A program made the translations under genes and the position numbers. Shown here piece after piece: positions 25,644 to 43,412 of a stretch of DNA of 64,000 nt; position 1 is the first letter of the stretch, and each line of letters begins with the position of its first letter. Origin of the DNA: an uncultured bacterium (GTDB taxonomy: Bacteria > Acidobacteriota > HRBIN11 > JAKEFK01); NCBI GenBank assembly GCA_963777505.1, contig CAVZQN010000008.1, positions 320,001-384,000 of the forward strand, read 5' to 3'. The notes below the pieces were generated by a model. The model was given only the letters and a program-made list of their open reading frames with translations. It ran no database searches and was not told where the DNA came from.

Positions 25644-27208
25644 GGTCAGGCTCACTGGAACGCATCAGAAAACTTGCCGTAGAAGAAATTCTACCGGAAG
25701 AACATCAGGCGGCACTAGAAGTATTAAAATCCCGCCGCGTAGCAATCTTCATCGTTGCGTATAACGCAGAAGCACATCTCGAATCGCTGATCGAACGCAT
25801 TCCTTCACAACTGATGCCCTATTTTGCTGAAATTTTTATTATTGATGACAGCTCAAGCGATATGACTTTCGAGGTAGCCAATCGCATTATCAAAAAATAT
25901 CCGAACCGCAATATCACCGCTTATAAAACGCCATTTAATCGCGGCTACGGCGGGAATCAAAAAATCGGATATCTGTATTGCATGGAAAAGGGACATGACA
26001 TCGTCGTACTTTTGCATGGAGATGGCCAATATGCGCCTGAATATCTACCTCGTATCCTTTCACAATTTAAGGACAATCCTGATGCTGTTTTTGCATCAAG
26101 AATGATGAACAAAAAACAGGCCCTTCAAGGCGGAATGCCCTTCTATAAATGGATCGGAAATCAGGTTCTTACAAATTTCGAAAATCGTTTGCTCAAAGCG
26201 AACCTTTCAGAATTTCATACTGGACTCAGAGCTTACAGTGTTGAATCTTTGAAAAAGATTCCATTTACGTACAATTCTGATGGCTTTCACTTTGATACAG
26301 AAATCATTATTCAAGTCCTTGCAAAAGGGCTAACGATCAAAGAAGTTTCTATTCCAACATTTTATGGAACTGAAGTTTGTCACGTAAACGGCTTTGAGTA
26401 TGCATACAACTGTATGCGATCCGTTATTGCCTACAATCTTGTAAACCTTGGTCTTTATTACAAACGGAATTTTGATTTCGGTCTTTTTGAATCTGAGAAT
26501 TACGTTTTTAAACGAAGCCCTTATTCCTTGCATCAGTATGTATTGAAGAGCGCAGGCCTGCATCCAGGCATGGTAAGCATTGAACTCGGTGCGAATCGTG
26601 GAATTTTAAGCAGCCATGTCGCAGAGAATGTGAATCAACATATAGCAGTTGATCAAAACACACCTGATCTAGCCGGCAAATCGGAAGCACTTGCTCTGGA
26701 TCTTGATAAATCCTTTGCTTCGCAAATTCCCCGTCGCAAGTATGAACTTTGCATTGCACTTGATGTTATTGAACATTTGAATGAACCTGAACATTTTTTG
26801 CTTGAAGTTTTTGATCTATTGAAGGCAAAAGGGAAACTTTTCATCAGCACAGCCAACATCTGTTATCTCCCAATGAGGCTTTCAATGCTATTGGGACAAT
26901 TCAACTATGGAAAGCGTGGGATCCTCGATCGTACCCACAAGCGATTATTCAGTGTAGCCAGCTTTCGGAAACTTCTTGCACAGTACGGTTATAAAGTCGA
27001 AGTGGTTCAAGGATTCGCGCCACCTTTAACAGATCTTATCAATAGCGGCTTTATGATGCGTTTACTTGAACGTGTGCACTCATTTTTGTCTCGTCATATG
27101 CCAAATCTGTTCGCATATAATTTTCTCGTAATTGCTACTCGTATGGATGGAATCGAAGACATTCTCAAGCAAACGACCGCAACGATGAAAGCTGCGGGAA
27201 GTCAGTAG
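25640..27208 (+). CDS. GT2 (polyprenyl-P-sugar synthase-like) fused to a SAM methyltransferase; probable CTG start
   Basis: RVAIFIVAYNAE lies upstream of the tracked ATG 25814; IIDDSSSD, GYGGNQK, HGDGQY and FHFDTE; C-terminal ELGANRG, LDVIEHL and GILDRTH. Confidence 0.85.
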   Translation: MRSGSLERIRKLAVEEILPEEHQAALEVLKSRRVAIFIVAYNAEAHLESLIERIPSQLMPYFAEIFIIDDSSSDMTFEVANRIIKKYPNRNITAYKTPFNRGYGGNQKIGYLYCMEKGHDIVVLLHGDGQYAPEYLPRILSQFKDNPDAVFASRMMNKKQALQGGMPFYKWIGNQVLTNFENRLLKANLSEFHTGLRAYSVESLKKIPFTYNSDGFHFDTEIIIQVLAKGLTIKEVSIPTFYGTEVCHVNGFEYAYNCMRSVIAYNLVNLGLYYKRNFDFGLFESENYVFKRSPYSLHQYVLKSAGLHPGMVSIELGANRGILSSHVAENVNQHIAVDQNTPDLAGKSEALALDLDKSFASQIPRRKYELCIALDVIEHLNEPEHFLLEVFDLLKAKGKLFISTANICYLPMRLSMLLGQFNYGKRGILDRTHKRLFSVASFRKLLAQYGYKVEVVQGFAPPLTDLINSGFMMRLLERVHSFLSRHMPNLFAYNFLVIATRMDGIEDILKQTTATMKAAGSQ

Positions 27209-29620
27209 TGTCAAATAACAGAATTTCTCTGACTGCAATTCCAAAAGAGCCCGGGTTCTGGATCTTATTTTCCATTGCAATTGCATTTTTCTACCGGCCA
27301 CTCTTTAACGACGAAACGTTTTTCTTTCGTGATCTTTACAATCATTTCTACCCACAAAAGAAATTGTTTGCTGAGCTTATGCTCTCCGGGCAACTACCGC
27401 TTTGGGATCCATTCCGGCATGGTGGACAACCTTTTCTAGCGAACATGAATAATTCCGTGTTGTATCCCACGAATTTCCTTTATCTGATCCTTGCTCCAAT
27501 TACAGCCTTCAATGTCGATATCGTTTTGCATGTTTTACTTGCATCCTGGTCTGCATACACGCTAGCAAGGATTTTGAATTTCAATCCAATTGCTTCCACA
27601 ACATGCGGAATTATCTATGCATTCTCAGGTCCTGCGCTTTCAGTTCCCAATGTTTGGCTGTATGCACCATTTCATCTTCCTTTGATGCTGGCACTGTGGC
27701 ATCTCTATTGTCTTGAAGAAAAAAAACGCTGGTTTGTACTGGCAGCGTTGGTTGGCACGATACAAGTTTTCGCGGGACGGCCCGAGCTGCCTGCAATAAC
27801 AGCAGTCACTTTGTTGATCTGGACATTGGCTTTTCCATATGGTCAAAATCTAAAAAAAGTATTCCGCTTCTTACTTCTGGAATTTTCAATCATTGGGCTA
27901 GCTGCAATTCAATTGATTCCGATGCTGGATTTGGTGCAGCAATCCTCTCGTGGTAATGTTACAAATCTTCACTCATTTTTCGCGTGGTCGGTTGATCCGC
28001 GAAGATATCCTGAATTCGCCATTCCAAACTTTCTAGGATCCGTCTACAGCGTTCTTGAATCAGACTTTTGGGGTCAAATTCTCGAAGATCTCGGAGTTCC
28101 ATACGTTTTGAGTCTTTACTTCGGAATTCCGGTTTTATTGTTTGCAATTATCGGTGGAATCAACAAAATTCCTGATCCCAAATTCCCTCGCAGAATTCGA
28201 ATTCTATTTCTCGTTATGATTGCACTTTGCTTCGTCGCAATGGCCGGACGTCACATGCTAGGGTTCCGGTCTCTTGTGGATGCCGTGCCTGCGATCACGA
28301 TATTCCGCTATCCGGTGAAATTCATTTTTCTTGCTCTTCTACCTTTTAGTTTGTTGGCGGGATATCAATTGCATCATTTTTTGGAAAATTCAGAGGAACA
28401 AGTTTCGCGTTTTACGATTGCGATAGTCGCATCCGCAGCAACGGCTCTTTCAATATTCGCCGCATATTGCTGGTTGTTTCCTAATGAGGCCGGGAGTTTT
28501 TTAACTTACTATTTCGGAAAAGCCGCGCTGAAAGGATTACGGAATTCAATTTTGCATGCCGCTGCGTCTTCGCTCCTGCTCGCTTTAATCATGGGTTACA
28601 GAACGATTCGGAAAAAACCGAATATCACAGCTGGAATTTCAATTTTGATAGCCCTCGATTTATTGGTCGCCGGCGCAGCGATAAACCAGTTTGCACCGCG
28701 TGAATTTTTAACAACCGTTCCCGATCTTGCTTCTTTCTTACAAACAGGAAATTGGAAATAGAAAACTATATAGGGACGTAGATTACGGTTCATTTACTTA
28801 CCGGCTTCCTTCAAGCGAAAGCGTCTACGTGGACCGCTGGCGTTTAGAGTTATTAAGCAACTATACAGCGACGCTTTACAACATCCCTGTTGTTTTTCAT
28901 GAAGATTATGATTGGCTAGAGCTGAGAAGAATGGAATCTATAAGCAGGACTTTGGCAAAATCAAATTGGGATCAAAAACTTTCCATTTTTTCTTCAGCTG
29001 CCGTTCGATTTGTATTAACAGCTCAGAGGATTCAGATCCCCGGCTTGAAACTGATTCGAATTATCAACAATGCAAGCAACACGCCGTACTTTCTCTATCA
29101 AAACGAACGTTGCGCACCAAGGGTTACTTTTGTTTCAAACTCACATGTTGAAACTTCAAAAGAAATTCTAAATCTAATAACGCTTCCAACGTTCGATCCT
29201 TGCAGTACAGTCCTGTTAGAAGATACAACTGCCCTGAAAAATTCCGGCACTCCAAAGGCAACAGTGAAAGTACTGAACTGGCGTTCGAATTCTTCAACTC
29301 ACTTAGTGATTACCGACAAGCCTGGATTTGTAGTGTTTTCGGAACCTTTTACCAACGGATGGTTATGGAAAGTTGATGAGTGGAATGTAAAACCAATTCG
29401 TGCAAATTACGCGTTTTCAGCAATAGCAGTTCCTGAAGGAAAACATTACATCCATCGTGTTTATCGACCGGTATCTGTAGTTGTTGGAACTGCAGTTTCT
29501 TTAATTTTTCTTTTAGGATTTGTGATCTTCAGTGTTGTCAGAAAGGGTATTACTTCTACTACTGAGAAAATTGCTGCTCCCTTGAATCCTGGTGAAACAA
29601 CATTTAACTCGACCGTATAA
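27208..29620 (+). CDS. YfhO-family GT-C membrane glycosyltransferase, split by an apparent +1 frameshift near 28741
   Basis: FRDLYNHFYP, LPLWDP..GGQPFLAN, FRYPVKF; C-terminal GFVVFSE...GW...RANYAFSAIAVPEGKH. Removing one C joins DLASFL-KQEIGNRK. Confidence 0.8.
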
Positions 29621-29701: not shown

Positions 29702-30703
29702 TTGAGAAAGTACATATTAGTTCTTTTTGTAATTTTGCCCCTTTTTTCTTGCAAAAGAACCCCTCCTATTCTTTGGACAACTGTTACAGGCGGTCCTGTT
29801 TATGGCTCACCTGCCTACGATAACGGTCTAATTTTCATTGGCAGTCAAGATAAGTATCTGTATGCCTTGAATGAGCGCGATGGAAGTGTAGCGTGGAAAA
29901 CCAATCTTGGCGCCAGAGTCGTCGCAACTCCGGTAATACGAGATGGATCACTATACATTGGAAGCGGAACGGGTGAATTTTTCAGTCTTAATCCGAAAAC
30001 AGGCCAAAAGAATTGGGTCTCAAAAACAGAAGGTTTAATTCATTACGAACCATGTTCTGATGAAACGGGTTTGTATTTTGGGAATGATCGCGGCCAATTT
30101 CTTAAAGTGAATTACGATGGCCAAATAGTATGGACTTTCAAAACCATAAATAAGTTCAATGGTGGTTGCAATTTTTATAAAGACTACGTTCTGACAAGCT
30201 CATGGGACTACAATTTCTATGCTCTTAATAAAAATGACGGCACAGTCGCATGGAAAGTCTCTTCTGGAACGCTGAACTACGGCGGACCGGAAATTGTGGG
30301 TGACGATGTTTACTTCGCAACGCATCAACAAATTTATCAGATTGAAGCGGCTACTGGAAAAGTTCGATCCCTCATAAAAACCCCATATCTTGTACATGTC
30401 TTGAATCACAACGGTTATCTCTGGACCAATGAAAAAGGATTGTCCAGGCGAAAACTGAATGGTGAAATTGTTGGCTCCGTCGATTTCAATTCCAATGCTG
30501 GATTCAAACCTGTTGTTGCAAAAGATCTTTTTATCCTGGCTGATACTACGAACTCTCTGTATGGAGTCTCCACAGATATGAAAATTCTTTGGAAACTTAA
30601 GCAAAGTGAGGCGTTCTGGTCTTCTGGTGTGATCAACAATAGCGTGTATTACACGGGAAACCGCAACAATAATGTTTATGCAATCCAATTACCGAAATCT
30701 TAG
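29702..30703 (+). CDS. PQQ-like beta-propeller lipoprotein (BamB-like repeats)
   Basis: Lipobox LFSC; repeated LYALN..DG.V.W blades. Confidence 0.85.
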   Translation: MRKYILVLFVILPLFSCKRTPPILWTTVTGGPVYGSPAYDNGLIFIGSQDKYLYALNERDGSVAWKTNLGARVVATPVIRDGSLYIGSGTGEFFSLNPKTGQKNWVSKTEGLIHYEPCSDETGLYFGNDRGQFLKVNYDGQIVWTFKTINKFNGGCNFYKDYVLTSSWDYNFYALNKNDGTVAWKVSSGTLNYGGPEIVGDDVYFATHQQIYQIEAATGKVRSLIKTPYLVHVLNHNGYLWTNEKGLSRRKLNGEIVGSVDFNSNAGFKPVVAKDLFILADTTNSLYGVSTDMKILWKLKQSEAFWSSGVINNSVYYTGNRNNNVYAIQLPKS

Positions 30704-32345
30704 TATTTATTTCGTTATTGCTGTTGCGGTTGCGTCAGCATCCCTTTTTCAGATAGCGGATCTTGATTTCTTCTGGCATCTGAAAACAGGCGACGTCATT
30801 CTTGAACGCCAGGAATTTCAAAGAACTGAGATCTATAGTTTTACCGCAGCGGGACGTGAATACATCGATCATGAATGGCTTTTTCAAGTAGTTCTTTCGC
30901 TGCTGTACTCCGCATTCGGCCCTGCCGGAGTCATCATTTTCAAAAGCATGATCATCGCATTGATGTATTTGCTTACGACAAGACATTTACTGAAAGAAGG
31001 CGCTTCCCCACTCGCCGTAGTATCGATTCAATTTCTTTCACTTTGTGGCGGCTTGCAGCGCATGATTGAAAGACCTGAAATATTCACAGCATTATTTTTT
31101 GTGATCACATTCCTGGTTCTTCATTCATTTCTCAAAAGCTGTAGCTGGTTTATTTTGTTGATTCTTCCTCCCTTGTTTGCGATATGGGCAAATTTTCATG
31201 CCGCCGTAATTCTTGGAATTGTACTTTTAGGTTGCTTCTTCGGAGGATTGCTGCTTGATTCCTTCATGAGACGTTCTGGATTGCCTGGATATTACGATGC
31301 AACTCCACGGAAACTAGGAATATTGCTGGGCATATTGATAATTTGTGTTGTTGCCACTGGCTTGAATCCTTATGGTTATCGAGTGCTGACAGTTCCTTTT
31401 GAACTAACATCCATTATCGATTCAGGAATTTTGAACAATGAAGAATGGCAGCCGCCATCACCGTTTACTTTGCCTTTCTATTACATTTGCGTCTTAGTTT
31501 CATTCGCAGTGATGCTGCTGAACTTCAGACGGTTGAGCCCAGTCCATTTTCTGCTAACAATTTTCTTTGCTTATGTTTCAATGAAATATGTCAGAAACAC
31601 GGGACTATTCTGCTGGTTTATGCCCTTGTTTCTGTCTCCGTATGCAGCTCAGATCAACGAACAGAAAATCGCTGTACGTGCAGCTGCAGTTTTTTCAGTA
31701 CTCTCACTTCTTTATTTAACAACAGCAGCTTTTCCATTCCAACGCGGCTTGGGAGTTGCATCTTATTTTCCAGAACGGATCGCAAAGTTTACAGAAGAAA
31801 AAAATCTTCAAGGCAATCTGCTAAACAGCTATTCGATGGGAGGCTATTTAATCTGGTCTCTTTATCCGGAACGAAAAATCTTTATCGATGGGCGAAATGA
31901 AGTCTACCTTCCACTGTTAAAACAAATTGTTCAGTCCCGAGCTGATAGCCGGCTTTGGAATAAGCTGCTTGCAGATTACAAAATCGAGTATGCTCTCTTG
32001 AACTACATTGACGAGCTTGAAGAAGTCACTTACATGGGAAAAAACGGTGAAATAACGAAGACTTATATGCCGTTTTCAGAAACACATTTTCCACGTTCAA
32101 AGTGGGCGCTTATTTATTGGGACGATATTGGAATGATTTTAGTTAAAAGAGATGGAGAAAATGCGAACTTGCTGCCTTTAGAATTCAAACACACCTACCC
32201 CGAAGGATCTAATTATATGGAAGCGCTCGTCGCAAATGGACGCATCTCGCGTGAAACCGCACAAAATGAACTCAAGCGGAAATTGAATGAAGACCCTCAC
32301 TGCAAACGAGCACAAATGTTGTTAGATACTATAACAAGCAAATGA
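30672..32345 (+). CDS. GT-C-like multi-TM membrane protein
   Basis: DLDFFWHLKTG, DHEWL, ERPEIF, WANFHA, LNPYG, EEWQP, GGYLIW and FIDGR motifs, typical of an uncharacterised GT-C-like family. Confidence 0.6.
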   Translation: MFMQSNYRNLSIYFVIAVAVASASLFQIADLDFFWHLKTGDVILERQEFQRTEIYSFTAAGREYIDHEWLFQVVLSLLYSAFGPAGVIIFKSMIIALMYLLTTRHLLKEGASPLAVVSIQFLSLCGGLQRMIERPEIFTALFFVITFLVLHSFLKSCSWFILLILPPLFAIWANFHAAVILGIVLLGCFFGGLLLDSFMRRSGLPGYYDATPRKLGILLGILIICVVATGLNPYGYRVLTVPFELTSIIDSGILNNEEWQPPSPFTLPFYYICVLVSFAVMLLNFRRLSPVHFLLTIFFAYVSMKYVRNTGLFCWFMPLFLSPYAAQINEQKIAVRAAAVFSVLSLLYLTTAAFPFQRGLGVASYFPERIAKFTEEKNLQGNLLNSYSMGGYLIWSLYPERKIFIDGRNEVYLPLLKQIVQSRADSRLWNKLLADYKIEYALLNYIDELEEVTYMGKNGEITKTYMPFSETHFPRSKWALIYWDDIGMILVKRDGENANLLPLEFKHTYPEGSNYMEALVANGRISRETAQNELKRKLNEDPHCKRAQMLLDTITSK

Positions 32346-33343
32346 AAAGAATTTTTCTGCTTCCCATTTTTTTGTTACTGCTAACTTCATGCAATTCATC
32401 GAATAAATTAATCTGGCAATGGACACTCGAAAGCCGTTGTTATGCTCAGCCGATCATTGATGGCAAGAACGTTTATGTTGTATCCCAGTCAGGCGAAGTC
32501 ATTTCAGGTGAGTACACAACAGGGAAAAAAAATTGGTCTATTAAGGCAAATGGACCGGTCTTAGGAGATCCGGATTTCGATCAAGACAAGGTATATGTTG
32601 CCACTCAAAATGGATCCGTTCTTGCGTTAAAAAAAGGAAATGGAAGCGTAAGCTGGAGCGTCAATTTTCCGGAAGAACATTTCACAGCACCACTGACAGT
32701 TGTAAAAGATATGGTTTTGGTTCCTTCAAGAACTGGCAACTTATATTCCCTTTCGGTTTCTGATGGCACCTTGCGTTGGAAACTTGAAGGAAACGCAAAA
32801 TACAACACAAAAGCAATCTCGCAAGGTTCTCATCTTTTTATCGGAGGATGGGGACATGATTTTTATTGTTTAAATCTGGATGGTTCAATCAACTGGAGAT
32901 ACAAAGCTTCGCATGTCATTGTTGAAAACGCAATGATCCATAAAAACACTGTTTATTTTACGGCACACGATCACTTTGTATACGCTTTGGACTTACAAAC
33001 AGGCCGTTTAAAGTGGCGTTTTCGAGCAGATCATCCAGATCCTACAGAAATGATATTGATTGGAAATGAAATCCTTTTTGGTTCAGCAGATGCAATCGAA
33101 GTCCTGGATCCTCAAACCGGAAAAAGGATTCGCCAAATAAAAGCCCAGCGAATTGTTGAACGCATCTACCCCTTGAACGACAAAGTTGTAATGGTTTCAA
33201 AAAACATCTACAAAATAGAACCAAAATCAGGAGCTATAGAAAAACTCATTTTAGACAAAGGCCCCTTTTTTAAGATCGCATTTACACCAGACCGATATAT
33301 CGTCTCCGATGAACTCTCGAGCATTTATGGTTATTCTTTCTGA
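32342..33343 (+). CDS. PQQ-like beta-propeller lipoprotein (BamB-like repeats)
   Basis: Lipobox LTSC; YALDLQTGRLKW-type blades. Confidence 0.85.
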   Translation: MKRIFLLPIFLLLLTSCNSSNKLIWQWTLESRCYAQPIIDGKNVYVVSQSGEVISGEYTTGKKNWSIKANGPVLGDPDFDQDKVYVATQNGSVLALKKGNGSVSWSVNFPEEHFTAPLTVVKDMVLVPSRTGNLYSLSVSDGTLRWKLEGNAKYNTKAISQGSHLFIGGWGHDFYCLNLDGSINWRYKASHVIVENAMIHKNTVYFTAHDHFVYALDLQTGRLKWRFRADHPDPTEMILIGNEILFGSADAIEVLDPQTGKRIRQIKAQRIVERIYPLNDKVVMVSKNIYKIEPKSGAIEKLILDKGPFFKIAFTPDRYIVSDELSSIYGYSF

Positions 33344-33392: not shown

Positions 33393-33485
33393 AAAGTGGC
33401 AATTGGCCCACAAAGAAGCTCGGCTCGATTTTAGTAAGTGTTGAAAATAAGAGACTTACCTTGAATCGTTCAATCAGGTTTTGCA

Positions 33486-33501
33486 TGGCATTAAACTTGC
33501 T
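33486..33501 (+). promoter_or_regulatory. sigma54 (-24/-12) promoter of the major pilin
   Basis: TGGCA-TTAAAC-TTGCT has the exact GG-N10-GC spacing and lies 40 nt before the pilin ATG. Confidence 0.75.
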
Positions 33502-33540
33502 CATTCAGGGGTTGAAGCGAAAATACCACAAGGAGGTACA

Positions 33541-34005
33541 ATGAGAATTAGGCTGAACAAGAAGGGTTTTACCCTAATCGAGCTTCTTATCGTTGTGGCT
33601 ATTATCGGAATCATTGCTGCTATTGCGATTCCAAACCTGTTGAATGCAATTCAACGTGGAAAGCAAAAAAGAACAATGGCCGATATGAGAGCCATCGGAA
33701 CTGCAGTTGAAGCATTTGCCGTTGATAACAACCGTTATCCCGACAGCGCATCACCTGTCACAAACATTACAGATGACTTAGAGCCGGTATACATTAAAAA
33801 GTTGCCGGTAACTGATGGATGGGAAACAGCATTAGATTATGTTGCCTATCCCGCAACTGCGGCTCAAAGTTATTCATTACAGAGTGCCGGAAAGGATAAA
33901 ACCTTCGATTTCCCGTGCAACAAAGTAATTACGACAAACTTTAACAACGACATTTGCTTTTCTCAGGGCAGCTTTACTCAGTTCCCCGAAGGAATCCAGC
34001 AATAA
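33541..34005 (+). CDS. Type IV pilin / GspG-like major pilin
   Basis: Class III signal KKG|FTLIELLIVVAIIGIIAAIAIP; AAGGAGG RBS fixes the start at 33541; C-terminal Cys pair. Confidence 0.9.
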   Translation: MRIRLNKKGFTLIELLIVVAIIGIIAAIAIPNLLNAIQRGKQKRTMADMRAIGTAVEAFAVDNNRYPDSASPVTNITDDLEPVYIKKLPVTDGWETALDYVAYPATAAQSYSLQSAGKDKTFDFPCNKVITTNFNNDICFSQGSFTQFPEGIQQ

Positions 34006-34078: not shown

Positions 34079-34540
34079 ATGACGCTAAGGGGTCGGGGGC
34101 CAAATAGCAAGGGATTCACGCTTGTAGAATTACTGATTGTTGTAGCCATTATCGGCATTCTTGCGGCAATTGCGATACCAAATCTATTGGATGCACTTGA
34201 TCGTACCCGACAACGGGCAACAGTAGCAGAAATGAGAACATGGGGAATTGCATTAACGGAATATTTTTCACAAAAAAGTCTTTACCCTCCACCTAATGGA
34301 CCATTTCAAATTACTCCGGCGTTTCAAGCTACTCTTGTTCCATTTGCAATCAACACAGTAACGCTGGATGATGCTTGGGGATATAATTTTTGGTATGAGT
34401 CAGATCTGACAAGTTCCTTTACGTTTCGATCCTGCGGTAAAGACGGAATTTGTGGCCTGGGTGTAACTCCATCGACCTGGATTAATTACAATTTAGACAT
34501 CGTGATGAACGATGGATTTTTCGTTAACTCACCGAGCTAG
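34079..34540 (+). CDS. Second type IV pilin-like protein with C-terminal Ser
   Basis: SKG|FTLVELLIVVAIIGILAAIAIP; paralogous to the first pilin; ends FVNSPS*. Confidence 0.9.
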   Translation: MTLRGRGPNSKGFTLVELLIVVAIIGILAAIAIPNLLDALDRTRQRATVAEMRTWGIALTEYFSQKSLYPPPNGPFQITPAFQATLVPFAINTVTLDDAWGYNFWYESDLTSSFTFRSCGKDGICGLGVTPSTWINYNLDIVMNDGFFVNSPS

Positions 34541-36420
34541 TGCGTGTTTTTCTAAATCCAAAATACCTTCCTTTCTTCGTTCTCTTTGCACTCCTTCCAT
34601 TTTTTGAAGGGTTAAGAACTTCAACCGGACTTTTTCTAGTCCACTCACTCATCCTCGTTTCCTTTCTGTTTACAATTCTTTATTACAACAAGATTTGGAT
34701 GCCGCCATATCTCAGTGGCTTTATTCCATTTCTTGTAGTCCTGGTACTGAGCCTGTTTGTAGCGCCCTACAAATATTCAGCATTCTTAGATCTTTGGGAT
34801 TATTGGATGGCGGCTGTGTTTGCCATTTTGATGTATTCATTTTTGAAAGAAAATGAAGACAAAGCTGAAGAAGTCGCATTTAATGCTTTTTTGCTCTGTA
34901 TTATAGCGCTCGTCATTACCGTTTTATTTATTCCGAATATCAACAAAATACGTTGGAGGGGTTCATTTGTAAATCCGACGGATTTCGGAACATTTTGTCT
35001 CTTGTTATTTGTGTTTGGACTTTTCTGGTTCGAAAGAGCAAGCAGCGCTCACAAAAAAGTAATCACATCCCTCTGTCTTATCTTTTTAGTTGTATCTGTT
35101 GCGATGGCATCCTCACGGTCAGTTTTACTCGCAACCTCTGTGATACTTATTTACTATCTTTGGAAAAAACGCGCATCTCGTCTTATTTATGCTTTTCTAG
35201 CCATCGCATTGATTGGAAGTGCAGCGGTCGTATACATCAGGCTTTTTCATTATTCAGATCCATTTCAATATTACAGATTCAAGATCTGGAAACACTCACT
35301 TCAAGGAATTATGCAGGATCCCTATCTTGGAATAGGTCTGAATATGCTTCCCTATCGCGCAGGGCAGTTTAATTTTCCTGCCGAGCAAGAAGTCGGACGA
35401 TATTCACGAATTGCGACTTCGGCTGACAATCAATATTTTCAGATTCTGATTGAGACAGGATTTCTCGGATTTTTTCTATTTCTAATTGGCTGGATTGGGC
35501 TTTATTTTGGATTAAGAAAACTTCCACAAAGATTTCTTATCTTTCACGGCGCTTACTTTATAATCTCTATTATTTCTTTATTTTCGATTCCTTTAGAAAA
35601 CACCGCGGTCTTATTTCTCTTTTTGTTTCTGATTTTATTTCCATTTGTGTTCGATCCTGAAGCAAAATCTAGATTCTGGATTCCTGGAAACATATCAAAG
35701 ACTCTAATCACAATTGGTATCGTTGGGATCTTCATATTCGCCGTGTTTTGTCCTTACAAGGCGGATCAGGAATTCAATTCATACCTTCAGAGTCAAGATC
35801 CAAAAGAGGCTGAAAAACATCTTCGCACTGCACTCCGTTTGAATCCATTCCAGCCTTATTATCGGTTTGCTGTCGTCCGGAGAGTAGTCGATTCGCGTCC
35901 ACAACTATCAAACGATCAATGGGAAGGACTTGCTAAGCGAATGGACTCTTTGATTACACTCAATCCTCTGGAAGCTGAGTTTTACACTTATAAGGGAAGA
36001 ATTTTTCGGAATCTTTTAGACAAAACTTCCAGCCCAGGCCACTACAACAATGCGGTTGCCTCGTATCAGCTCGCGATTCAAAGAGTACCCTATAACGTTT
36101 TCTTACGAGCCGAATATGCATTCTTCGAGGTTAAGTCAGGACATCTTGATCGAGCGGAATTTGAATTGCATCAAATACTTAAACTCGAACCTGCGTTTTT
36201 AAATGCACGTTTATTACTTGCCGAGATCATGCTGAAACGCGGCGATGTTGAATCGGCAAGGAAACACTTTCTCGAAGAGGATCGATTACAAAAAAAGCAT
36301 GCAAATTTGAACTATTCTGTTGATGAACCTTATGTGCGAAAATTGATTCAGGTTGATGATTCCCACAAAGATAGAATTAAGAAGCTGATTTTTGATGCCT
36401 CAACATCTTCAACTCCCTAA
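34540..36420 (+). CDS. O-antigen ligase / O-oligosaccharyltransferase-like protein (Wzy_C) with C-terminal TPRs
   Basis: RWRGSFVNP, SSRS, RFKIW...PYLGIG...SADNQYFQILIETGFLG; TPR-like helices (ALRLNP, ILKLEP). Confidence 0.8.
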   Translation: MRVFLNPKYLPFFVLFALLPFFEGLRTSTGLFLVHSLILVSFLFTILYYNKIWMPPYLSGFIPFLVVLVLSLFVAPYKYSAFLDLWDYWMAAVFAILMYSFLKENEDKAEEVAFNAFLLCIIALVITVLFIPNINKIRWRGSFVNPTDFGTFCLLLFVFGLFWFERASSAHKKVITSLCLIFLVVSVAMASSRSVLLATSVILIYYLWKKRASRLIYAFLAIALIGSAAVVYIRLFHYSDPFQYYRFKIWKHSLQGIMQDPYLGIGLNMLPYRAGQFNFPAEQEVGRYSRIATSADNQYFQILIETGFLGFFLFLIGWIGLYFGLRKLPQRFLIFHGAYFIISIISLFSIPLENTAVLFLFLFLILFPFVFDPEAKSRFWIPGNISKTLITIGIVGIFIFAVFCPYKADQEFNSYLQSQDPKEAEKHLRTALRLNPFQPYYRFAVVRRVVDSRPQLSNDQWEGLAKRMDSLITLNPLEAEFYTYKGRIFRNLLDKTSSPGHYNNAVASYQLAIQRVPYNVFLRAEYAFFEVKSGHLDRAEFELHQILKLEPAFLNARLLLAEIMLKRGDVESARKHFLEEDRLQKKHANLNYSVDEPYVRKLIQVDDSHKDRIKKLIFDASTSSTP

Positions 36421-36453: not shown

Positions 36454-37191
36454 ATGACCGCAACCGGCGAATCGATTTCTGTAGTAATTCCAGCTTTCAA
36501 TGAAGAAAAAAGAATTGAAGCGCCTGTTAACGGCGTAATTGAATATCTAAGCAGTCGTTTTGAAAAGTGGGAAGTAATTTACTCTGATGATGGCAGCACC
36601 GATGGTACGGTGGATAAACTGATTGGAATTCAGAAAAAGCATCCAGAGATTAAGATTATTCGAACAGATAAAAATCATGGCAAAGGATCTGCTGTAAGAA
36701 ATGGTATGAAAGCGGCCACTGGTGAGGTCGTTTTGTTTTCGGATACTGACTTCAGTACTCCGATTCAAGAGACAGACGCACTCCTTACGCATTTGAAAAA
36801 TGGTTATGATGTCGCGATAGGCAGTCGAGGTCTTCCGAGTTCCAGGGTTGAGATTCATCAAGCTATGCCTCGCGAAATAATGGGTAAGGTTTTCAATCGA
36901 ATTCTTAGAACGCTATTACCGCTGGAGTTTAAGGATACGCAGTGTGGCTTTAAGATTTTCAGCCGGAAGGCTGTCGACCTCATCCTGCCACGAATGAGCA
37001 TTAACGGTTTTGCATTTGATGTGGAAATATTGATCATTTCCCAGGTTAATAATCTCAGGATCATTGAAGTGCCCGTAATCTGGAGGAATGTCCTTGATAG
37101 CCGGGTACATCCAGTGCGAAATTCGCTCGAAATGTTGCGCGATGTGATGCAAATCCGTTCGAGACTGAATCACAATCTTTATTCACAGTGA
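36454..37191 (+). CDS. GT2 polyprenyl-phosphate glycosyltransferase (Dol-P-Glc synthase-like)
   Basis: VVIPAFNE, DDGSTD, HGKGSAV, FSDTD, DTQCGFK and FAFDVE motifs. Confidence 0.9.
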   Translation: MTATGESISVVIPAFNEEKRIEAPVNGVIEYLSSRFEKWEVIYSDDGSTDGTVDKLIGIQKKHPEIKIIRTDKNHGKGSAVRNGMKAATGEVVLFSDTDFSTPIQETDALLTHLKNGYDVAIGSRGLPSSRVEIHQAMPREIMGKVFNRILRTLLPLEFKDTQCGFKIFSRKAVDLILPRMSINGFAFDVEILIISQVNNLRIIEVPVIWRNVLDSRVHPVRNSLEMLRDVMQIRSRLNHNLYSQ

Positions 37192-37201
37192 GAGCTGTGT
37201 T

Positions 37202-39227
37202 TTATTTCAGGATGAAAATCTGAATGGAATTTTTTCCGGAGCGAAAAGATTCTTCAGGCACCATAATTGCAAACCCATGGTTGCTGCTATCCACTGGAAA
37301 CGTGCGAGCAGTTCCGCGAATTACTCCATTTACACCCGCTGCCAACCAAATGTCACCGGCTTTCGAACTGCCAGATTGAATCCTTCCCTGATATAAGCGC
37401 AGGAACATATCCAGAGTCAGGGTTCACATCTTCAAAAAGTTGCGGAGAAGCGAGCGAATGGGATGCAGGTTGAAGGTCTTTCACGGAACGACCATATAAA
37501 TCTGGGAATTGTCTACAAAAGAAGAGTCCATTGAATGGACGATCGGTGCCGAAGTGCGATTGAATGGTTAAAGCATTGCCCGAAATGCCGAAATCACGAA
37601 AAGATTTAACCATACCTTTCTTGTCCATCCATTGATAAGCGTGTCGTTCAGCGCGAACCCGATAATTTTCATCAATTGCGGATTGTCCATCCACTTTCCA
37701 TGGAACTGAAATTTTTAGAGAAGCGGCAATGGAAGGTAAAATGTCGATCGTTTCTACAGGCAGATCACTGATTCTTCCTGAATTTTGATTTGGTTGTTTG
37801 ATGAACAAAGGTATTGAAAGAATGTCAGCTCGATTTGTGTCTGTTAGAGTTCTTCGCTGGTCTCCAAATTTAAAACTGATTCCATGATCCCCTGTTATAA
37901 CGATCACTGCTGAATCAAATAGATCAACCTCTTGAAGTCTTCGCATCAGGCGTCCAATTTCGTGATCCACGAGACCTGTCTGCAGCATATGACGTTGCAG
38001 TGCTCTCTGTGCAGTTACTTCATCGCCCCAATTTTCGCCGCGATCTTCCATCGTAGGCTGAGCGTAACGGGCGAAATTGTAATCGACACCCGATGGAAAA
38101 TATTGCCAGGGCCCATGAGGCAAGATTGTGTGTTTGAAGAATAATCCAGGCCTTTTGCTCTTCTTTATTTGAGAAATAAATAATTGTAGATTCTCATCGC
38201 GGCCCAGAACTTTATCACGTTTCGATTTCGTTGAGCTTCCTGACTCCCAAAAATTACTCCAGGTTTGTTGAATGGAAGGAAAATGTTGAGCATAAGATGG
38301 CGGCAAAACAGTTTGTAAAAGTACTGCGGCTGCATCGCTCAGCATACCTGCTTGATTATCAACAAGACTCGAATGTTCAACGCCGGCGCCTGCTTTTATT
38401 GGGTTCAATGAACTGACAACCTCTTGAATATTCATTTCATAAGTCTTGTTTAGAAGTGTGAAAAGGTTTTCCGGATGATCAAAAATTGTTGGAAGTGATT
38501 CTCGATTCGGGTATCGGCCCGTAAGCAAGGCAGTCACTGCTTCTTGAGTTCTGTCGCTTACGCTGCTTGCGCGTCTAAACCAGGTAGACGTTTCTGCAAG
38601 TTTGCAGAAATTTGGATATCTCTCACAATCAATGTTTCCTTCTTTATTCAGCAAAATGCTAAGAGGAAATTCATCGCAAATCAGGATTACAACCGGCGCT
38701 GTCGCGTCAATTTGGTAAACAGGTATTGCGGGACTTTTCGCAGAAACAACTTTCGAAATCGCTGGAGCCAGCAAAAACATCGCGGGCACAGCCACAATGG
38801 CAGGAAATAAGAAAACGAAAAATGATTTTATCGCAGGAATACGATTTCTCGCGATTACGATGAGTCCTCCAAAGATAATCGATAGGATCAACTTTACGGA
38901 ATCAGGCATCATCCTCATGTTTCGGGTGAATGCTAGAAAAAAGAGAGCGATAAGAGTGGCTATTAGAAACTCGTGAAAGTATTTCCTCGTCTTTGCGCTG
39001 AAGACGCCGATAATCAATTCGATAAACCACAGGCAAAGAGGAATCCCAATTGCAACAGCTGCAACAAACACGAACACTTCCAGGCTTGAGTTTCGGCGAA
39101 CGAGGAAAAATTCGGGACCTTTCGAAAGAACATTAAAAAGAGGCTGAGCGATCGCCAGGTTTGTTAACGCGAAGATTTCAATTGCGGCAGGAAACCAGGA
39201 TTCTTTGCCAGCCCGGTTCAGACTCAT
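37202..39227 (-). CDS. Membrane-anchored sulfatase-like / LtaS-type phosphotransferase (paralog 2), apparent +1 frameshift near 37387
   Basis: Paralog of 13774 (shared LA.AQPLF.VLS.G.EFF, DEFP, LPH.PW, T.DHG; nucleophile-position Thr in SDRTQEA). Removing one base joins GYVPALIS-GRIQ...GVNGVIR, matching the paralog's tail. Confidence 0.8.
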
Positions 39228-40652
39228 TGAGCTTTGGGTTGGAGAAAAAATAAGACTCTAGTTTGGTTCGAGAGTTCTTCCCGAGCTTGAACATGAAAGT
39301 GAGCTGAAATTAGCTTTTCAAATATAGGAAGTGTGTATTCGGAATATTGATCATCCTTGTTACGGAGCAAGTGACGCACCATTGGATCTTCCTTCGTTGG
39401 AAATTCAATGATGATTGAAGCTCCTATTTCAGATAACCATCGGACAAACTCATCTAATGGTATGTTTGCGCTTATGACCATGTGATGGACCAGCGCAAGA
39501 CAAAGAATTAAGTCGGGCTTACCGCGCTCAATTAGTGATTTTCTTTCTTGTCCGCGCCATCCTAAACCAGGTGATGAATCAGCAAGGTTCATGACTAAAG
39601 GAAGAATGTTCGTAGACTTTTCTGCTTTCAACTGATGGTAGAGTCTTTCAACAGTTAGATGATCGGCATCCATTGCAACAACATAGTTTGAATTTTTTGC
39701 TGCAATTCTTGAAAATACCCCAACGTTGCAACCGAGATCCCAGACTAAATTCCAATGTTTCGATTCTGCAGCCTTGCGGACAAAATCAACTTTCTTGCTC
39801 TGATCTTCAGACGAATACGAATTATCACTGGCATAATCCGACCACTCAGATTTGCGCTCTTTTCCATTCAAGTCTTTCTACAATTTTGCGGAGACCAAGT
39901 ATGTTTCTTCGGATCAACTCTTCACTAAATCCGACGGATTTTAGTTCCGATCGAACACTGGAGGGGTTGTTTCCATATTTGGTCTGAAGCTTGCCTTGAA
40001 GATAAGCGTGCATAAACACGCCACGCCGGAATAAATCTCTCAGACTGATCAAACGAGCAAAACTTTCAACAGGAATTCCGTCAATCGATCCGCGCATCCA
40101 TGAATGGTACGGAATTTCTTTGTAAGAAATCAGCAAGAGTGGAAACAGATACATTTCACAAAACTGTTTATAGCCGGTCCAGGGTTCTCCTTTTGAAAGT
40201 TGTTTGAATGAAAGGATGTCAATGAATACAGGATTCGCTCCTTTCCACTGGACATTGTATGGCGTTGCATCTTTGAGAATAAATCCTTCATGAAGCGATG
40301 CTGTCAGAAGTTCCAATTGCAGGATCGCAGCATTTTTAAGCATGCTGAATGTCCACTCATAGGGATACGAAACAAATGGAATTCTTTCATGCTTCAAAAC
40401 TCCAGCCCAATTTTCAGCAAAATCAAAATTCTTAAGAGCGTCATTTCCAATACGCTCGGTTGCAACCAATCTTCCTTGCGCCATCTGTTCTTTATAAAAC
40501 TTTGATTTCGACAGTGATTCCCAAATGGAAAGAGCTTCATTGGACAAGACTCTTAAAACAGAGTCTGAAGAATAAACGATTCGCCCGCTGCGATCACGAA
40601 AAGAACCTTCTTCAAATCGGGGGCTTTCTAAAGATTGATCGAGGTAGGTCAT
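39224..40652 (-). CDS. NoeA-like protein: kinase-like N-domain + class I SAM methyltransferase, apparent +1 frameshift near 39861
   Basis: SFRDRSG, SYPYEW, LKDATPYNVQ and PVFIDILSF; C-terminal WDLGCNVG, SPGLGW and LALVHH. Removing one A joins LEWK-ERKSEWSDY. Confidence 0.75.
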
Positions 40653-40675
40653 GAAACGATAGCAGTCACGGAAGT

Positions 40676-40918
40676 TTAGCCTTCAGAACTGCTGGATGAT
40701 TCGGAGTCGTTTTTCTCAGGTAAATCGTCTTTCCGGATGCGAAGGACTGTTAGAATTCGATGCCACATTAACTTGATCACGACGGCAGCGGCTGCAACAC
40801 CGCCCAACAAAACCTGCAGCACCATACTTCCTGAACCTGGATCCAGATAAGCATGAGCCGGCGACGTCAGAAATAAAAAAATCCCTATTGCTATTAGAGC
40901 TACCTGCAACCCCTTCAC
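40676..40918 (-). CDS. Small exported membrane peptide, AHA|YLDPGSGS type
   Basis: Signal peptide ending PAHA, then YLDPGSGS, a TM helix and a charged tail. GTG start at 40918 chosen from the upstream -10. Confidence 0.75.
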   Translation of the reverse strand: MKGLQVALIAIGIFLFLTSPAHAYLDPGSGSMVLQVLLGGVAAAAVVIKLMWHRILTVLRIRKDDLPEKNDSESSSSSEG

Positions 40919-40980
40919 GTCTCCAATAGTACCACGTAACCTGCCTGAAATCAATTGCTTCCGGGGGTAAGAGCCTGGAA

Positions 40981-42381
40981 CTATTCTCGATTTGTGGCTT
41001 GGTTTTTGAATACCGACAATCGGTGCTTTTTTAGAATCGGAATGGATTGCCGGATGAAGTCGGTATCCGGGAACAGTCTTTCCAACAATTGCTCATCTTG
41101 CATCCGATACAACTCACTGCGAGCTGGGGTCAGATAACCATGAAGCTTAACTGCATAAAGTGCGCCATAGATAGAATTTATGAAGATCAGAAACATTATT
41201 GTTCCACTGCAAAAACGAGTCCATCTTTTACTCTTCAACGTTACGTTAGACAGTTTCAGCAAAACCAGTAACGAAATCCAAAAGAGACTGGAGATCGTCA
41301 CATACCGCAGGTTAAGTGCGCTTTCAATTCCCATCGCAGATCGTCCCAGTGCACTCACTGAAGCTGTAAGAAGCACATACATTGAAAGCGCGAACAAAGA
41401 AATCAAAGAGCTATTCTTTCTTATTGACTTCGACTGATGAAGAAAATAGAAAAATATTCCAATGCCTATAGCACCAGCAAACGAAGAGGCATTACGGGGA
41501 AACCAAAATAGAAATTCTGGCAACGAAAGACCCTGTTGAGAAAGCCAATTTGCAACTGTTTCTGTTTTCTTAGTGAATGCAAAAAGAGGAGCGCCGGTGT
41601 ATGCAAGAACGTAATTGAACGCTTGCATTGGCCGCTGAAGAAAACTCCAAATTGATGGATGGTGGGAAGGACTCTCATAACCTGTGAAGTACAGTGCTAT
41701 AGAAACAGTTGAGATAAGCAGCCAAAACGCCAGAAGATTCCAACCTTTTCCAAAGTGTCTTATTCGTATATAGAGTATCCAGACTCCCAGCGGCCATAAC
41801 AATAAACCGTTCGCAAAAGTAAATGTAGCAATTAGGCCGAGAAAGGCAGCCAATATAGTTCGCTTCCAATTCAGTTGATGAGTTCCAAGAAATATCAATG
41901 CCCAGGTTACAGCAGCAATGTTCAAGAAAATTTGAATGTTATAACCATTGAACCAGCTTTCGGATTGATGAAGACCGAAAATGATAAATGAGATAGCAGG
42001 AATCAGGCCCAAGAGACTCGCTGAAAACTCTATCTCTGCTTTTTTCAGCAAAAAGATAATGCCAAGAAATGTAACCGACGCAATTACGAAATTTGTCAGC
42101 AGTTCATAGAGAGTGGTCCAATGAGATAGCTGGGCAAGAACGATTAAAATCAAGCGTGAAAAAAACGGTCTGTGTTCATTATGTAATACCCAAAGATCCT
42201 TTACTGTGAGTGTGCCGTTGTAGGCTTTGTCGAGCAGTGAAACGAGTTCCCACTGGTCGGCAACAGGCGCTTCGATCCTGTACTTCAAAAGAAAGAAAAT
42301 TAGAATGATTGGTGGAATGGCTGCCAATATTATGATCAGCTTCTTTCGAGGTGATTGTGAATGATTGCCGGTGGAATTCAT
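40981..42381 (-). CDS. GT-C-like multi-TM membrane glycosyltransferase
   Basis: PVADQW..LWVLHNEHR first loop, FANGLLLWP, ALGR and LRY motifs; ATG 42381 overlaps the upstream stop (TAATG). Confidence 0.6.
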   Translation of the reverse strand: MNSTGNHSQSPRKKLIIILAAIPPIILIFFLLKYRIEAPVADQWELVSLLDKAYNGTLTVKDLWVLHNEHRPFFSRLILIVLAQLSHWTTLYELLTNFVIASVTFLGIIFLLKKAEIEFSASLLGLIPAISFIIFGLHQSESWFNGYNIQIFLNIAAVTWALIFLGTHQLNWKRTILAAFLGLIATFTFANGLLLWPLGVWILYIRIRHFGKGWNLLAFWLLISTVSIALYFTGYESPSHHPSIWSFLQRPMQAFNYVLAYTGAPLFAFTKKTETVANWLSQQGLSLPEFLFWFPRNASSFAGAIGIGIFFYFLHQSKSIRKNSSLISLFALSMYVLLTASVSALGRSAMGIESALNLRYVTISSLFWISLLVLLKLSNVTLKSKRWTRFCSGTIMFLIFINSIYGALYAVKLHGYLTPARSELYRMQDEQLLERLFPDTDFIRQSIPILKKHRLSVFKNQATNRE

Positions 42382-43412
42382 TAAGATAAATACCGTTTGT
42401 AGACTTCCAGCAATCTCGGAAACCAAACGTGTTTTGAATACTGATTCACAACAGTGTTGCGTGCCGCAATTCCCATACTTTTTCGAAGTGCTGTGTTTTC
42501 AAGAAGTAATTTCAGTTTGCTTTTCCATTCATCTGGAGTTGCTGCCACAAATCCATTGATTCCATCTTCAATCACTTTTGTATTCACACCAATAGCCGTA
42601 GCAATTCCAGGAATGCCGGCAGCCATGTATTGCAAAAGTTTCATTGCGCATTTTCCTTTGCTCCATTCATCAATCCGCAATGGCATAAGTCCAATATCAA
42701 ATGAAGCGATTTGTTCAGATTCGCGCTCAGAATCCCATTTTTCAAAACGGTAAGGAACTGGAAAACTGCGGGGCGGTGACCCACTCAGAATTACAAACTC
42801 AGTTGGATAATGCTGTAATGCGTCCTTCAACACTGCGGCAATCTCATGCAAATACTTGAAATTATATTCGAGGCCTGACCAGCCAATAACAATCTTGTCT
42901 TGTGTCTCACGATCTAAAGGCTTGAACAGATTGGTATCAATTGTCGTTGGAATTACTTCCACATTTCTTTGAAATTGAAGAATGAACCTTTCCAGTATTT
43001 CGTTTCCAGCGACTACCCCCGAGGCTGCCTGAAACAATTTGGGAAGTTTTTCAGGGTGAGTTAAATAAATTGCATCGTCTATTTCAAGCAGAAATTTTCG
43101 TGGCAAGAATTGCTTTTCCAACACAAAGGGAAGATAAGGAAAAAGCTGTTGTTCAATAACGATCAAATCGGCATCGCTATTTCTCAAATGAAACAGCCGG
43201 TCTGCAAATCTTGAGATTGAATATGTAGATTTTCGCAGGACCCTCCGGGCTGAGATGGGATCACGGAGCGCTGAAAAATACTCTTCTTCAAAAAGTGGAA
43301 ATATCTCGAAGCTCCATCCAGCTTTACGAAAATCTTTTTGATACTGGTAAGCACGATAGCGGCTGCTCGGGCCGAGAAAAGAATATTTCGAATAGTAATG
43401 AACTCGGGTCAT
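42381..43412 (-). CDS. Glycosyltransferase family 4
   Basis: GPSSRYR, EIDDAIY, DIGLMPL..GKCAMKLLQYMAAGIP motifs. Confidence 0.9.
   Translation of the reverse strand: MTRVHYYSKYSFLGPSSRYRAYQYQKDFRKAGWSFEIFPLFEEEYFSALRDPISARRVLRKSTYSISRFADRLFHLRNSDADLIVIEQQLFPYLPFVLEKQFLPRKFLLEIDDAIYLTHPEKLPKLFQAASGVVAGNEILERFILQFQRNVEVIPTTIDTNLFKPLDRETQDKIVIGWSGLEYNFKYLHEIAAVLKDALQHYPTEFVILSGSPPRSFPVPYRFEKWDSERESEQIASFDIGLMPLRIDEWSKGKCAMKLLQYMAAGIPGIATAIGVNTKVIEDGINGFVAATPDEWKSKLKLLLENTALRKSMGIAARNTVVNQYSKHVWFPRLLEVYKRYLS

Follow-up and report, generated by a model that had tools for sequence, protein, structure and literature searches.

The 64,000-nucleotide stretch of DNA analysed here (the window: contig CAVZQN010000008.1 of an uncultured acidobacterium, positions 320,001 to 384,000) carries on its minus strand a trio of genes, which encode a small membrane peptide with the motif YLDPGSGS, a NoeA-like fusion of a kinase-like and a methyltransferase domain that is split into two open reading frames (ORFs), and a NoeB-type membrane enzyme. 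This trio is another copy of a widespread peptide-NoeA-NoeB module, found in a new host lineage and possibly broken. A first-pass annotation made from the sequence had described a compact three-gene unit at this place, and the ORF calls locate such a unit on the minus strand. The module spans many phyla and is present in about a fifth of the sampled genomes of the window's phylum; solving its chemistry would assign a function to three large families at once and might reveal a new envelope substituent. The window copy itself adds little beyond another host lineage, and the assembly breaks in two of its genes call for caution.

The three families are linked across distant lineages. We compared 80 loci, which are the best-scoring NoeA relatives from contigs of one genome per species rather than a random sample, and which cover Acidobacteriota, Nitrospirota, Binatia, Gamma- and Alphaproteobacteria, Actinomycetota, Planctomycetota and others. 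When searched with a profile built from the motif and the helix, 75 of the 80 loci have the peptide directly upstream of NoeA and on the same strand; a simple motif pattern found it in 53 of 75 loci with enough flanking sequence and missed variants such as YLDAGTGS. Of the five loci without the peptide, two (L049 and L072) have next to no flanking sequence upstream, and from three (L023, L042 and L052) the peptide is truly absent. With the window protein as query, 46 of 70 loci have a relative of the third protein directly downstream, and the apparent exceptions, in the examples checked with Pfam, have a more divergent PF00884 protein upstream, in divergent or in convergent orientation. A broadened sulfatase-family profile, partly seeded with these verified exceptions, which therefore match by construction, recovers at least one sulfatase-family ORF in 72 of the 80 loci, and in five of the eight remaining loci the flanks are cut. 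Apart from these families, no gene cluster is common to more than 8 of the 80 loci in a neighbour clustering whose crude ORF calls took antisense shadow ORFs over NoeA in 11 loci of high GC content. At the genome level, the peptide occurs in 30 and NoeA in 33 of 151 genomes of the window's phylum, and all 30 peptide-positive genomes are NoeA-positive as well, kin among them not being independent. The co-occurrence profiling that the first-pass annotation had proposed as a check on its unit thus comes out in favour of a linked trio.

Copies of the peptide gene also lie away from NoeA, five in all, in four genomes (G002, G004, G124 and G125); three of these adjoin a sulfatase-family gene and two adjoin recG. 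The recG-adjacent copies (L093:6043-6279 in G002 and L097:113-388 in G004) come from the same genus and are far from NoeA, and G004 has a second copy (L094:5039-5260) ahead of a sulfatase-family gene. Gene order varies as well: in a genome of the window's genus (G001, locus L089, G001:C4:2307000-2325000) a membrane protein gene is followed by a 690-aa NoeB-type gene, the peptide gene and the NoeA gene, and downstream of NoeA lie a 214-aa ORF, a glycosyltransferase family 2 (GT2) gene and a gene for a 690-aa membrane protein.

The same three families stand in the same order in Sinorhizobium meliloti. A plasmid protein search with P0002, which is 86% identical to the window gene product and its closest intact relative, matched 65 records, 57 of them from Sinorhizobium, with genes annotated noeA, and P0002 is 34% identical to S. 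meliloti NoeA over 95% of its length (E 1e-75). The label NoeA-like given in the first-pass annotation therefore denotes a true homologue. On pSymA the order is nodL, a hypothetical 71-aa ORF, noeA and noeB; the 71-aa ORF reads ..VPAHAYLDPGTGSMLVQ.. and is by its sequence a member of the window peptide's family. The S. meliloti unit follows nodL under nod control on a symbiotic plasmid, whereas the window trio ends a chromosomal stretch that looks like a surface-glycan operon, in a soil-type bacterium with Acidobacteriota as its closest named relatives, and two genes are frameshifted in the window trio as compared with the S. meliloti unit. The noeA/noeB operon of S. meliloti, with its nod box n5, is said to have been described by Ardourel et al. 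in 1995, and the two genes reportedly influence legume host range, an effect discovered, as it is said, in the same year.

Legionella anisa has in Lani_1193/1194/1195 the same kinase-methyltransferase fusion with a small neighbour and a neighbour of alkaline-phosphatase fold. According to Krysinska et al. (2022, Sci Rep 12:21782, PMC9758233), Lani_1194 is a fusion of an atypical kinase and a methyltransferase and a homologue of NoeA, in whose family an Arg replaces the strand-3 Lys, no ion-pair Glu was found and the D/N/D residues are conserved; of 816 neighbourhoods, 65% contain Lani_1193, a small hypothetical protein without detectable relatives, and 38% contain Lani_1195/NoeB, whose alkaline-phosphatase fold resembles EptA, YejM and MCR-1. 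The paper also states the NoeA/NoeB link, treats the genes as possible effectors, gives no biochemistry and leaves the peptide motif undescribed; its 65% and 38% are lower than the 75/80 and 72/80 obtained with profiles here. By its size and position, Lani_1193 is probably a member of the same peptide family. The first-pass annotation had called the pathway undescribed, which does not hold, as the fusion family, the small neighbour, the neighbour of alkaline-phosphatase fold and the noeA-noeB link are already found in PMC9758233. Our literature search, with subscription papers outside its reach, found no experimental work on the chemistry of the trio. In gene make-up the trio resembles BcsE-BcsF-BcsG of enterobacterial cellulose secretion, where a cytoplasmic protein, a tiny single-pass protein and a phosphoethanolamine transferase of the alkaline-phosphatase superfamily are encoded together. 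The analogy is one of gene make-up only, with no sequence relationship expected, and BcsE is a sensor of cyclic di-GMP whereas NoeA is a kinase-methyltransferase.

The peptide gene (40676..40918, minus strand) starts with GTG behind GGAG and encodes 80 aa, while an alternative TTG start at 40954 would give a 92-aa form. The peptide is laid out as MKGLQVALIAIGIFLFLTSPAHA, YLDPGSGS (encoded at 40849..40826), a hydrophobic helix and a basic tail; residues 1-23 make up a signal-like leader, the single transmembrane (TM) helix has a Q/GG/A face, and the basic juxtamembrane tail is followed by an acidic one. The 80-aa peptide with YLDPGSGS before a TM helix, as first annotated, is accordingly present, and it shows the features of its family, namely A-Y-[LIM]-D-[PA]-G-[ST]-G-S, a TM helix with Q..GG.A and a position directly upstream of NoeA. 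No credible Pfam or NCBIfam match was obtained for it, ESM Atlas gave unnamed clusters only, and a search for longer proteins found no fusion to a larger protein among 1,715 candidates, which is weak evidence. Both the 80-aa and the 92-aa forms are absent as exact sequences from a collection of 15 billion proteins, which means that the gene is there either uncalled or called with another start. In 43 aligned peptides the Y, D, G and S of Y-x-D-x-G-x-G-S and a Q, a G and an A are invariant, and further residues (G, G, V and W) are nearly so. The conserved parts are A-Y-x-D-x-G-x-G-S directly before the helix and one helix face (Q, G, A, V). As Q38, G42, A45 and V49 share this face, the pattern suggests specific helix packing within the membrane.

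Signal-peptide cleavage before the motif Tyr would fit some members of the family. Of 75 relatives, 67 have Ala ahead of this Tyr and 46 have Ala or Val at -3, and a hydrophobic, signal-like leader precedes the motif in 25 of the 75 at a threshold chosen here. In the remaining two thirds, which include the actinomycetotal and planctomycetotal loci, the leader is not hydrophobic, and in most of these the start codon nearest to the motif lies only 2-8 residues ahead of it. Going by the positive-inside rule, the motif would face outward and the basic tail inward.

The first ORF of the NoeA-like gene (39846..40652, minus strand, 268 aa) encodes an atypical protein-kinase-like domain, as indicated by its invariant residues, its model and fold searches. 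The kinase-like motifs named in the first-pass annotation are found at residues 126-133 (LKDATPYN) and 143-145 (FID). R34, K127, D128, N133 and D145 are invariant in the NoeA family, which makes R34, K127-D128, N133 and D145 candidate catalytic residues; the conserved set comprises the strand-3 Arg, the Asp and Asn of the catalytic loop and the metal-binding Asp. The ORF has no credible Pfam or NCBIfam match, and a profile of the domain run against PDB sequences gave only a chance-level match to RecX (E 0.76), so that the case for the fold is a structural one. Modelled alone, the window domain reached a predicted local distance difference test (pLDDT) score of 87.3. The top 50 Foldseek matches of this model are all protein kinases (E from 1.7e-5, TM-scores 0.3-0.45), and all of the 50 top rows of VIA-align against representatives are kinases too (Z 9.2-11.0 with about 200 residues aligned). 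The best structural matches include the kinases and pseudokinases IRAK3, PKR, RIP3, YabT and PknG; WbdD is not among the 50 rows listed in either search. The kinase-like fold, which the first-pass annotation had wanted to see examined, is confirmed by both searches. When read through, the middle gene encodes a cytoplasmic enzyme, whose kinase-like domain keeps the catalytic Asp/Asn/Asp.

The second ORF (39224..39871, minus strand, +1 frame, 215 aa) encodes a class I S-adenosylmethionine (SAM) methyltransferase domain, as indicated by weak Pfam matches (Methyltransf_11/12/23/25), by Foldseek and by the profile comparison with PDB sequences. The full-length model of P0002 (pLDDT 83.7, predicted TM-score 0.87) matches mostly class I methyltransferases in Foldseek, with NodS first (E 3e-8), the methyltransferase domain of WbdD at rank 18 and ScNTM1, a protein N-terminal methyltransferase, also among the matches. 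The family profile has nine matches at E<=1 among PDB sequences, and four of the nine are WbdD entries, with E 0.004-0.006 and an alignment of about 120 residues. Within this alignment the invariant H389-H390 (read-through numbering) fall on H132-H133 of WbdD (native numbering as in 4uw0), two residues which are essential for phosphate methylation according to Hagelueken et al. (2012, PMC3482155). This pair is the best support found for the methyl-phosphate idea of the first-pass annotation, suggestive though no proof.

The likeness to WbdD of Escherichia coli O9a (PDB 4azs, 4azw, 4uw0), which was already pointed out in that annotation, goes further. Both proteins combine a kinase and a SAM methyltransferase in a single polypeptide, their methyltransferase cores align including the His-His pair, and NodS is the nearest fold neighbour of both, for WbdD as given in PMC3482155. 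They differ in domain order, which is methyltransferase before kinase in WbdD and reversed in NoeA, and in that WbdD has a C-terminal coiled-coil whereas NoeA lacks one and ends with the last strands of its methyltransferase domain. WbdD is not known to have a peptide or sulfatase-family partner.

The start of the third gene (37353..39227, minus strand, 624 aa as called) overlaps the stop of the methyltransferase ORF in ATGA. Its product matches PF00884 (Sulfatase, E 7e-18), and hydropathy predicts four strong and one weaker hydrophobic segment within residues 12-164. Across 33 relatives, no variation is seen at D187, T228, H367, H372 and D447-H448; in the window protein these sites are represented by D185, T227 (codon 38547-38549), H371 and D447-H448. 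T227 aligns with the formylglycine Cys of the phosphonate monoester hydrolase 4upk, and the formylglycine signature C/S-x-P-x-R is replaced by T-Q-E-A-V. Matches among PDB sequences comprise phosphonate monoester hydrolase, sulfatases, LtaS and YejM. The Thr at the formylglycine position together with the LtaS and YejM matches marks the protein, by alignment, as a phosphotransferase-like enzyme of the Thr type and not a sulfatase. The gene is thereby predicted to encode a membrane-anchored enzyme of the alkaline-phosphatase superfamily that has, as LtaS and EptA do, a Thr nucleophile and metal ligands, and the coupled Thr-type transferase of the first-pass annotation is confirmed both in its overlap and in T227. 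LtaS (PDB 2w5q, 2w8d, 4uoo), EptA/MCR-1 and YejM/PbgA share with it the sulfatase fold, the Thr nucleophile, the Asp/His ligands and, as predicted for the window protein, an N-terminal helical anchor; however, good alignment is confined to the C-terminal third of the catalytic domain, and the window protein has an extra C-terminal domain of about 170 residues. Its NCBIfam scores are far below every equivalog cut-off, and NCBIfam gives a name to none of the trio's ORFs. PF00884 is matched by S. meliloti NoeB too. In a gammaproteobacterial metagenome-assembled genome (MAG), the sulfatase-family gene after NoeA (L038:8472-11504) encodes 1,010 aa, and this protein has a weak match to the start of PF03009 (glycerophosphodiester phosphodiesterase; E 1e-5, 37 residues), a possible hint that the chemistry involves glycerophospho-diesters.

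Two frameshifts are present in the deposited sequence of the trio, and homologues read straight through both sites. Frameshift 1 (+1; 39846..39857, minus strand) is one extra base within GCGCAAATCTGA and separates the kinase-like from the methyltransferase domain, and homologues read ..LEWKRxxSEWSDY.. across it. Read through by one four-letter step (ATCT=I, unique), the gene gives a 475-aa protein, whose relatives are unbroken and about 470 aa long (at least 7,953 among 8,000 candidates at E<=0.001); the 120 relatives listed are 52-86% identical to it. The same-genus genome G001 has an intact NoeA-like protein of 472 aa and a third protein of 690 aa. One conspecific assembly carries the intact 475-aa form with the junction LEWKRHKSEWSDY; a second is split into 268 and 215 aa too, its second piece starting with NGKDAKSEW as against NGKERKSEW in the window; and a third has a 205-aa piece with other ends. 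Frameshift 1 is most likely base-calling or assembly noise. Of the single kinase-methyltransferase polypeptide proposed in the first-pass annotation, both domains have thus been borne out, but in the window assembly they are parted by the frameshift, and they are joined in the 475-aa conspecific and the 472-aa G001 forms. Programmed +1 frameshifting at this site was also considered and rejected, since one conspecific assembly reads through.

Frameshift 2 (+1; 37382..37391, minus strand) is located close to the 3' end of the NoeB-type gene, inside TCAGGGAAGG. In the +1 frame an ORF at 37408..37202 is open for 68 codons beyond the 624-aa ORF, and alignment to homologues places a C-terminal continuation of about 63 residues at 37202..37390 on the minus strand. 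The 690-aa protein of G001 aligns to the window in one frame as far as ..ALISG, its alignment continuing from GRIQSG.. in the next frame, and 23 of 28 matches to the continuation in related loci share an ORF with a sulfatase-family match. The 624-aa form recurs in the very assembly that holds the intact 475-aa NoeA. Elsewhere in the window two overlapping plus-strand ORFs (27208-28761, 517 aa, and 28727-29620, 297 aa) correspond to one 756-aa ORF in G001 (L091:1453-3723), a YfhO C-terminal match being found in the second ORF only. Three genes are therefore split in a window with 55 called ORFs, and the third split gene fits an error-prone assembly. Taken together, the two frameshifts of the trio are more probably errors of such an assembly than real inactivation. 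The one public sequencing run that matched the stretch, at 5% of the sampled words, covers 40510-40761 with a single 252-nt contig and neither frameshift site. In two MAG loci (L009:6773-6976 and L070:6604-6837) the peptide gene has a frameshift of its own after the motif, which reminds us that indel errors affect many of the assemblies used for comparison.

How might the three products work together? We hold, with somewhat more confidence than doubt, that NoeA would phosphorylate and then methylate a lipid-linked or lipid substrate at the inner membrane face, the product being a methyl phosphate as with WbdD; that the NoeB-type enzyme would transfer a phospho-group on the outer face of the membrane; and that the peptide would be a transmembrane subunit serving both enzymes, its motif facing out and its basic tail facing in. 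The target would be an envelope glycan or lipid, and our confidence in any specific substrate is much lower than in this general scheme. Several points weigh against it. The topology, cleavage and partners of the peptide are deduced from sequence alone; the match to WbdD is weak (E 0.004-0.006), and the HMMER alignment of the family with WbdD stops before the positions of Arg203 and Tyr16; the two His also occur in NodS or RebM, as stated in PMC3482155, and are thus not unique to phosphate methyltransferases. Moreover, the third protein has a weak match of 24% identity over 140 residues to S. meliloti NoeB (E 1e-6), 3 of the 78 loci with enough flank lack the peptide, and in the genus of G002 and G004 neither partner is found within the 1.5-kb flanks of NoeA. 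Finally, two conspecific assemblies with frameshift 2 differ by substitutions, which is as compatible with a real mutation as with a systematic error. This last point bears directly on whether the unit is dead here, both frameshifts being real, NoeA being cut into its two domains and the NoeB-type enzyme losing its last ~65 residues in a decaying cassette, an outcome which the first-pass annotation had itself named as fatal to its proposal. We regard this as unlikely, though as a serious contender. Both breaks do stand in the deposited sequence, the 624-aa truncated form recurs in one further conspecific assembly, which differs by substitutions, and the 268+215 split in another, and the patchy occurrence in the phylum (33 of 151 genomes) is what a dispensable cassette would be expected to show. 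Yet the intact 475-aa protein of one conspecific assembly disfavours death at site 1, different letters at the break in the second assembly and breaks elsewhere in the third are the pattern of base-calling noise, a third gene of the 64-kb window is likewise split relative to the same-genus genome, and the out-of-frame pieces remain open and still resemble homologues. Besides, the kinase and the methyltransferase might still work as separate polypeptides, and so might a NoeB that is slightly shortened.

Other readings keep the unit alive and change its parts. NoeA might be a WbdD-like chain terminator for the glycan of the local operon, capping the lipid-linked polymer with methyl phosphate in the cytoplasm, with the NoeB-type enzyme decorating this glycan independently on the outside and the peptide merely anchoring NoeA, which has no membrane segment of its own. 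The trio does come last in a long run of co-directional genes for glycosyltransferase, aminotransferase and methyltransferase enzymes, and WbdD-like methyltransferase features are present. We nevertheless think this distinctly improbable: no glycan-synthesis gene is conserved as a neighbour across the 80 loci, the module, which in S. meliloti sits in a nod operon, is not tied to a single kind of polymer, NoeA lacks the C-terminal coiled-coil ruler of WbdD, and the tight three-way linkage argues for joint action. More doubtful still is a role of the peptide as acceptor, in which the NoeB-type enzyme would put a phospho-form on the exposed Tyr or Ser of YLDPGSGS and NoeA would prepare the donor. 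There are precedents for such modification of proteins, as PptA modifies neisserial pilin and EptC modifies FlgG with phospho-forms. The conserved Y, D and S lie in a stretch predicted to face outward, where the NoeB-type catalytic domain should be, the module is self-contained with no other conserved neighbour, and three of the five peptide copies not adjacent to NoeA stand with a sulfatase-family gene alone. However, the Q, G, A and V on one side of the TM helix are as strongly conserved as the motif, which fits a packing subunit better than a substrate, and a single-copy membrane stub of 50 residues would be an odd final product. Finally, the best structural matches of the kinase-like domain to protein kinases and pseudokinases, and ScNTM1 among the fold matches, might be taken to mean that this domain regulates the transferase or other proteins as a protein kinase or pseudokinase and that the methyltransferase acts on protein. 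This we consider very improbable, as such matches are the default for any kinase-like fold, and the WbdD-like methyltransferase fusion and the phosphotransferase linkage point to small-molecule or glycan chemistry. In addition, according to PMC9758233, Arg stands in place of the strand-3 Lys and a search for the ion-pair Glu found none.

The general scheme of phosphorylation and methylation by NoeA and transfer by the NoeB-type enzyme can be drawn out into a self-contained cycle of methyl-phosphate decoration with a common membrane lipid as carrier, a speculation to which we attach little confidence. NoeA would phosphorylate an inner-leaflet lipid, for example diacylglycerol left by the transferase, and methylate the phosphate; the lipid would flip; the Thr of the NoeB-type enzyme would pass the methyl-phosphate to an envelope acceptor outside, regenerating the lipid; and the peptide would bridge both enzymes. 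If true, such a cycle would account for the lack of any other conserved neighbour from Actinomycetota to Proteobacteria and for the phosphate-binding His pair of WbdD that the methyltransferase retains.

As to its surroundings, the trio looks like the tail of a long minus-strand surface-glycan operon, since the gap from the preceding co-directional gene to the peptide gene is short (26-62 nt). The same-strand genes upstream encode a 481-aa multi-pass membrane protein, glycosyltransferases of families 4 (GT4) and 2 (GT2), a methyltransferase, a DegT-type aminotransferase and a family 1 glycosyltransferase (GT1), with gaps of -46 to +26 nt among them. The 481-aa protein is without a family; ESM Atlas gave unnamed clusters, with DUF6056 and Glucos_trans_II as weak leads. 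The -10 box of its own that the first-pass annotation had ascribed to the unit was not recovered: a consensus scan of 36900-42600 gave 5 sites against 8.9 expected, none of them a promoter-like site upstream of the peptide gene. At the other end, a terminator-like hairpin with T-runs (37184..37199, no strand assigned; a consensus match, with 5 such sites against 5.3 expected in the region) sits between the convergent ends of the NoeB-type gene and a GT2 gene (36454-37191).

Beyond the trio, two paralogous genes for beta-propellers of the PQQ/BamB-like type (29702-30703 and 32342-33343, plus strand) flank a 557-aa ORF (30672-32345) for which no Pfam family was matched. They are followed on the plus strand by two pilin-like genes (33481-34005 and 34079-34540) with the N_methyl motif, one with a T2SS-G domain, and by a gene (34540-36420) for a Wzy_C (O-antigen ligase-like) membrane protein with C-terminal TPR repeats, which has an ATGA-type overlap with a pilin-like gene, an arrangement which we take to recall pilin O-glycosylation systems.

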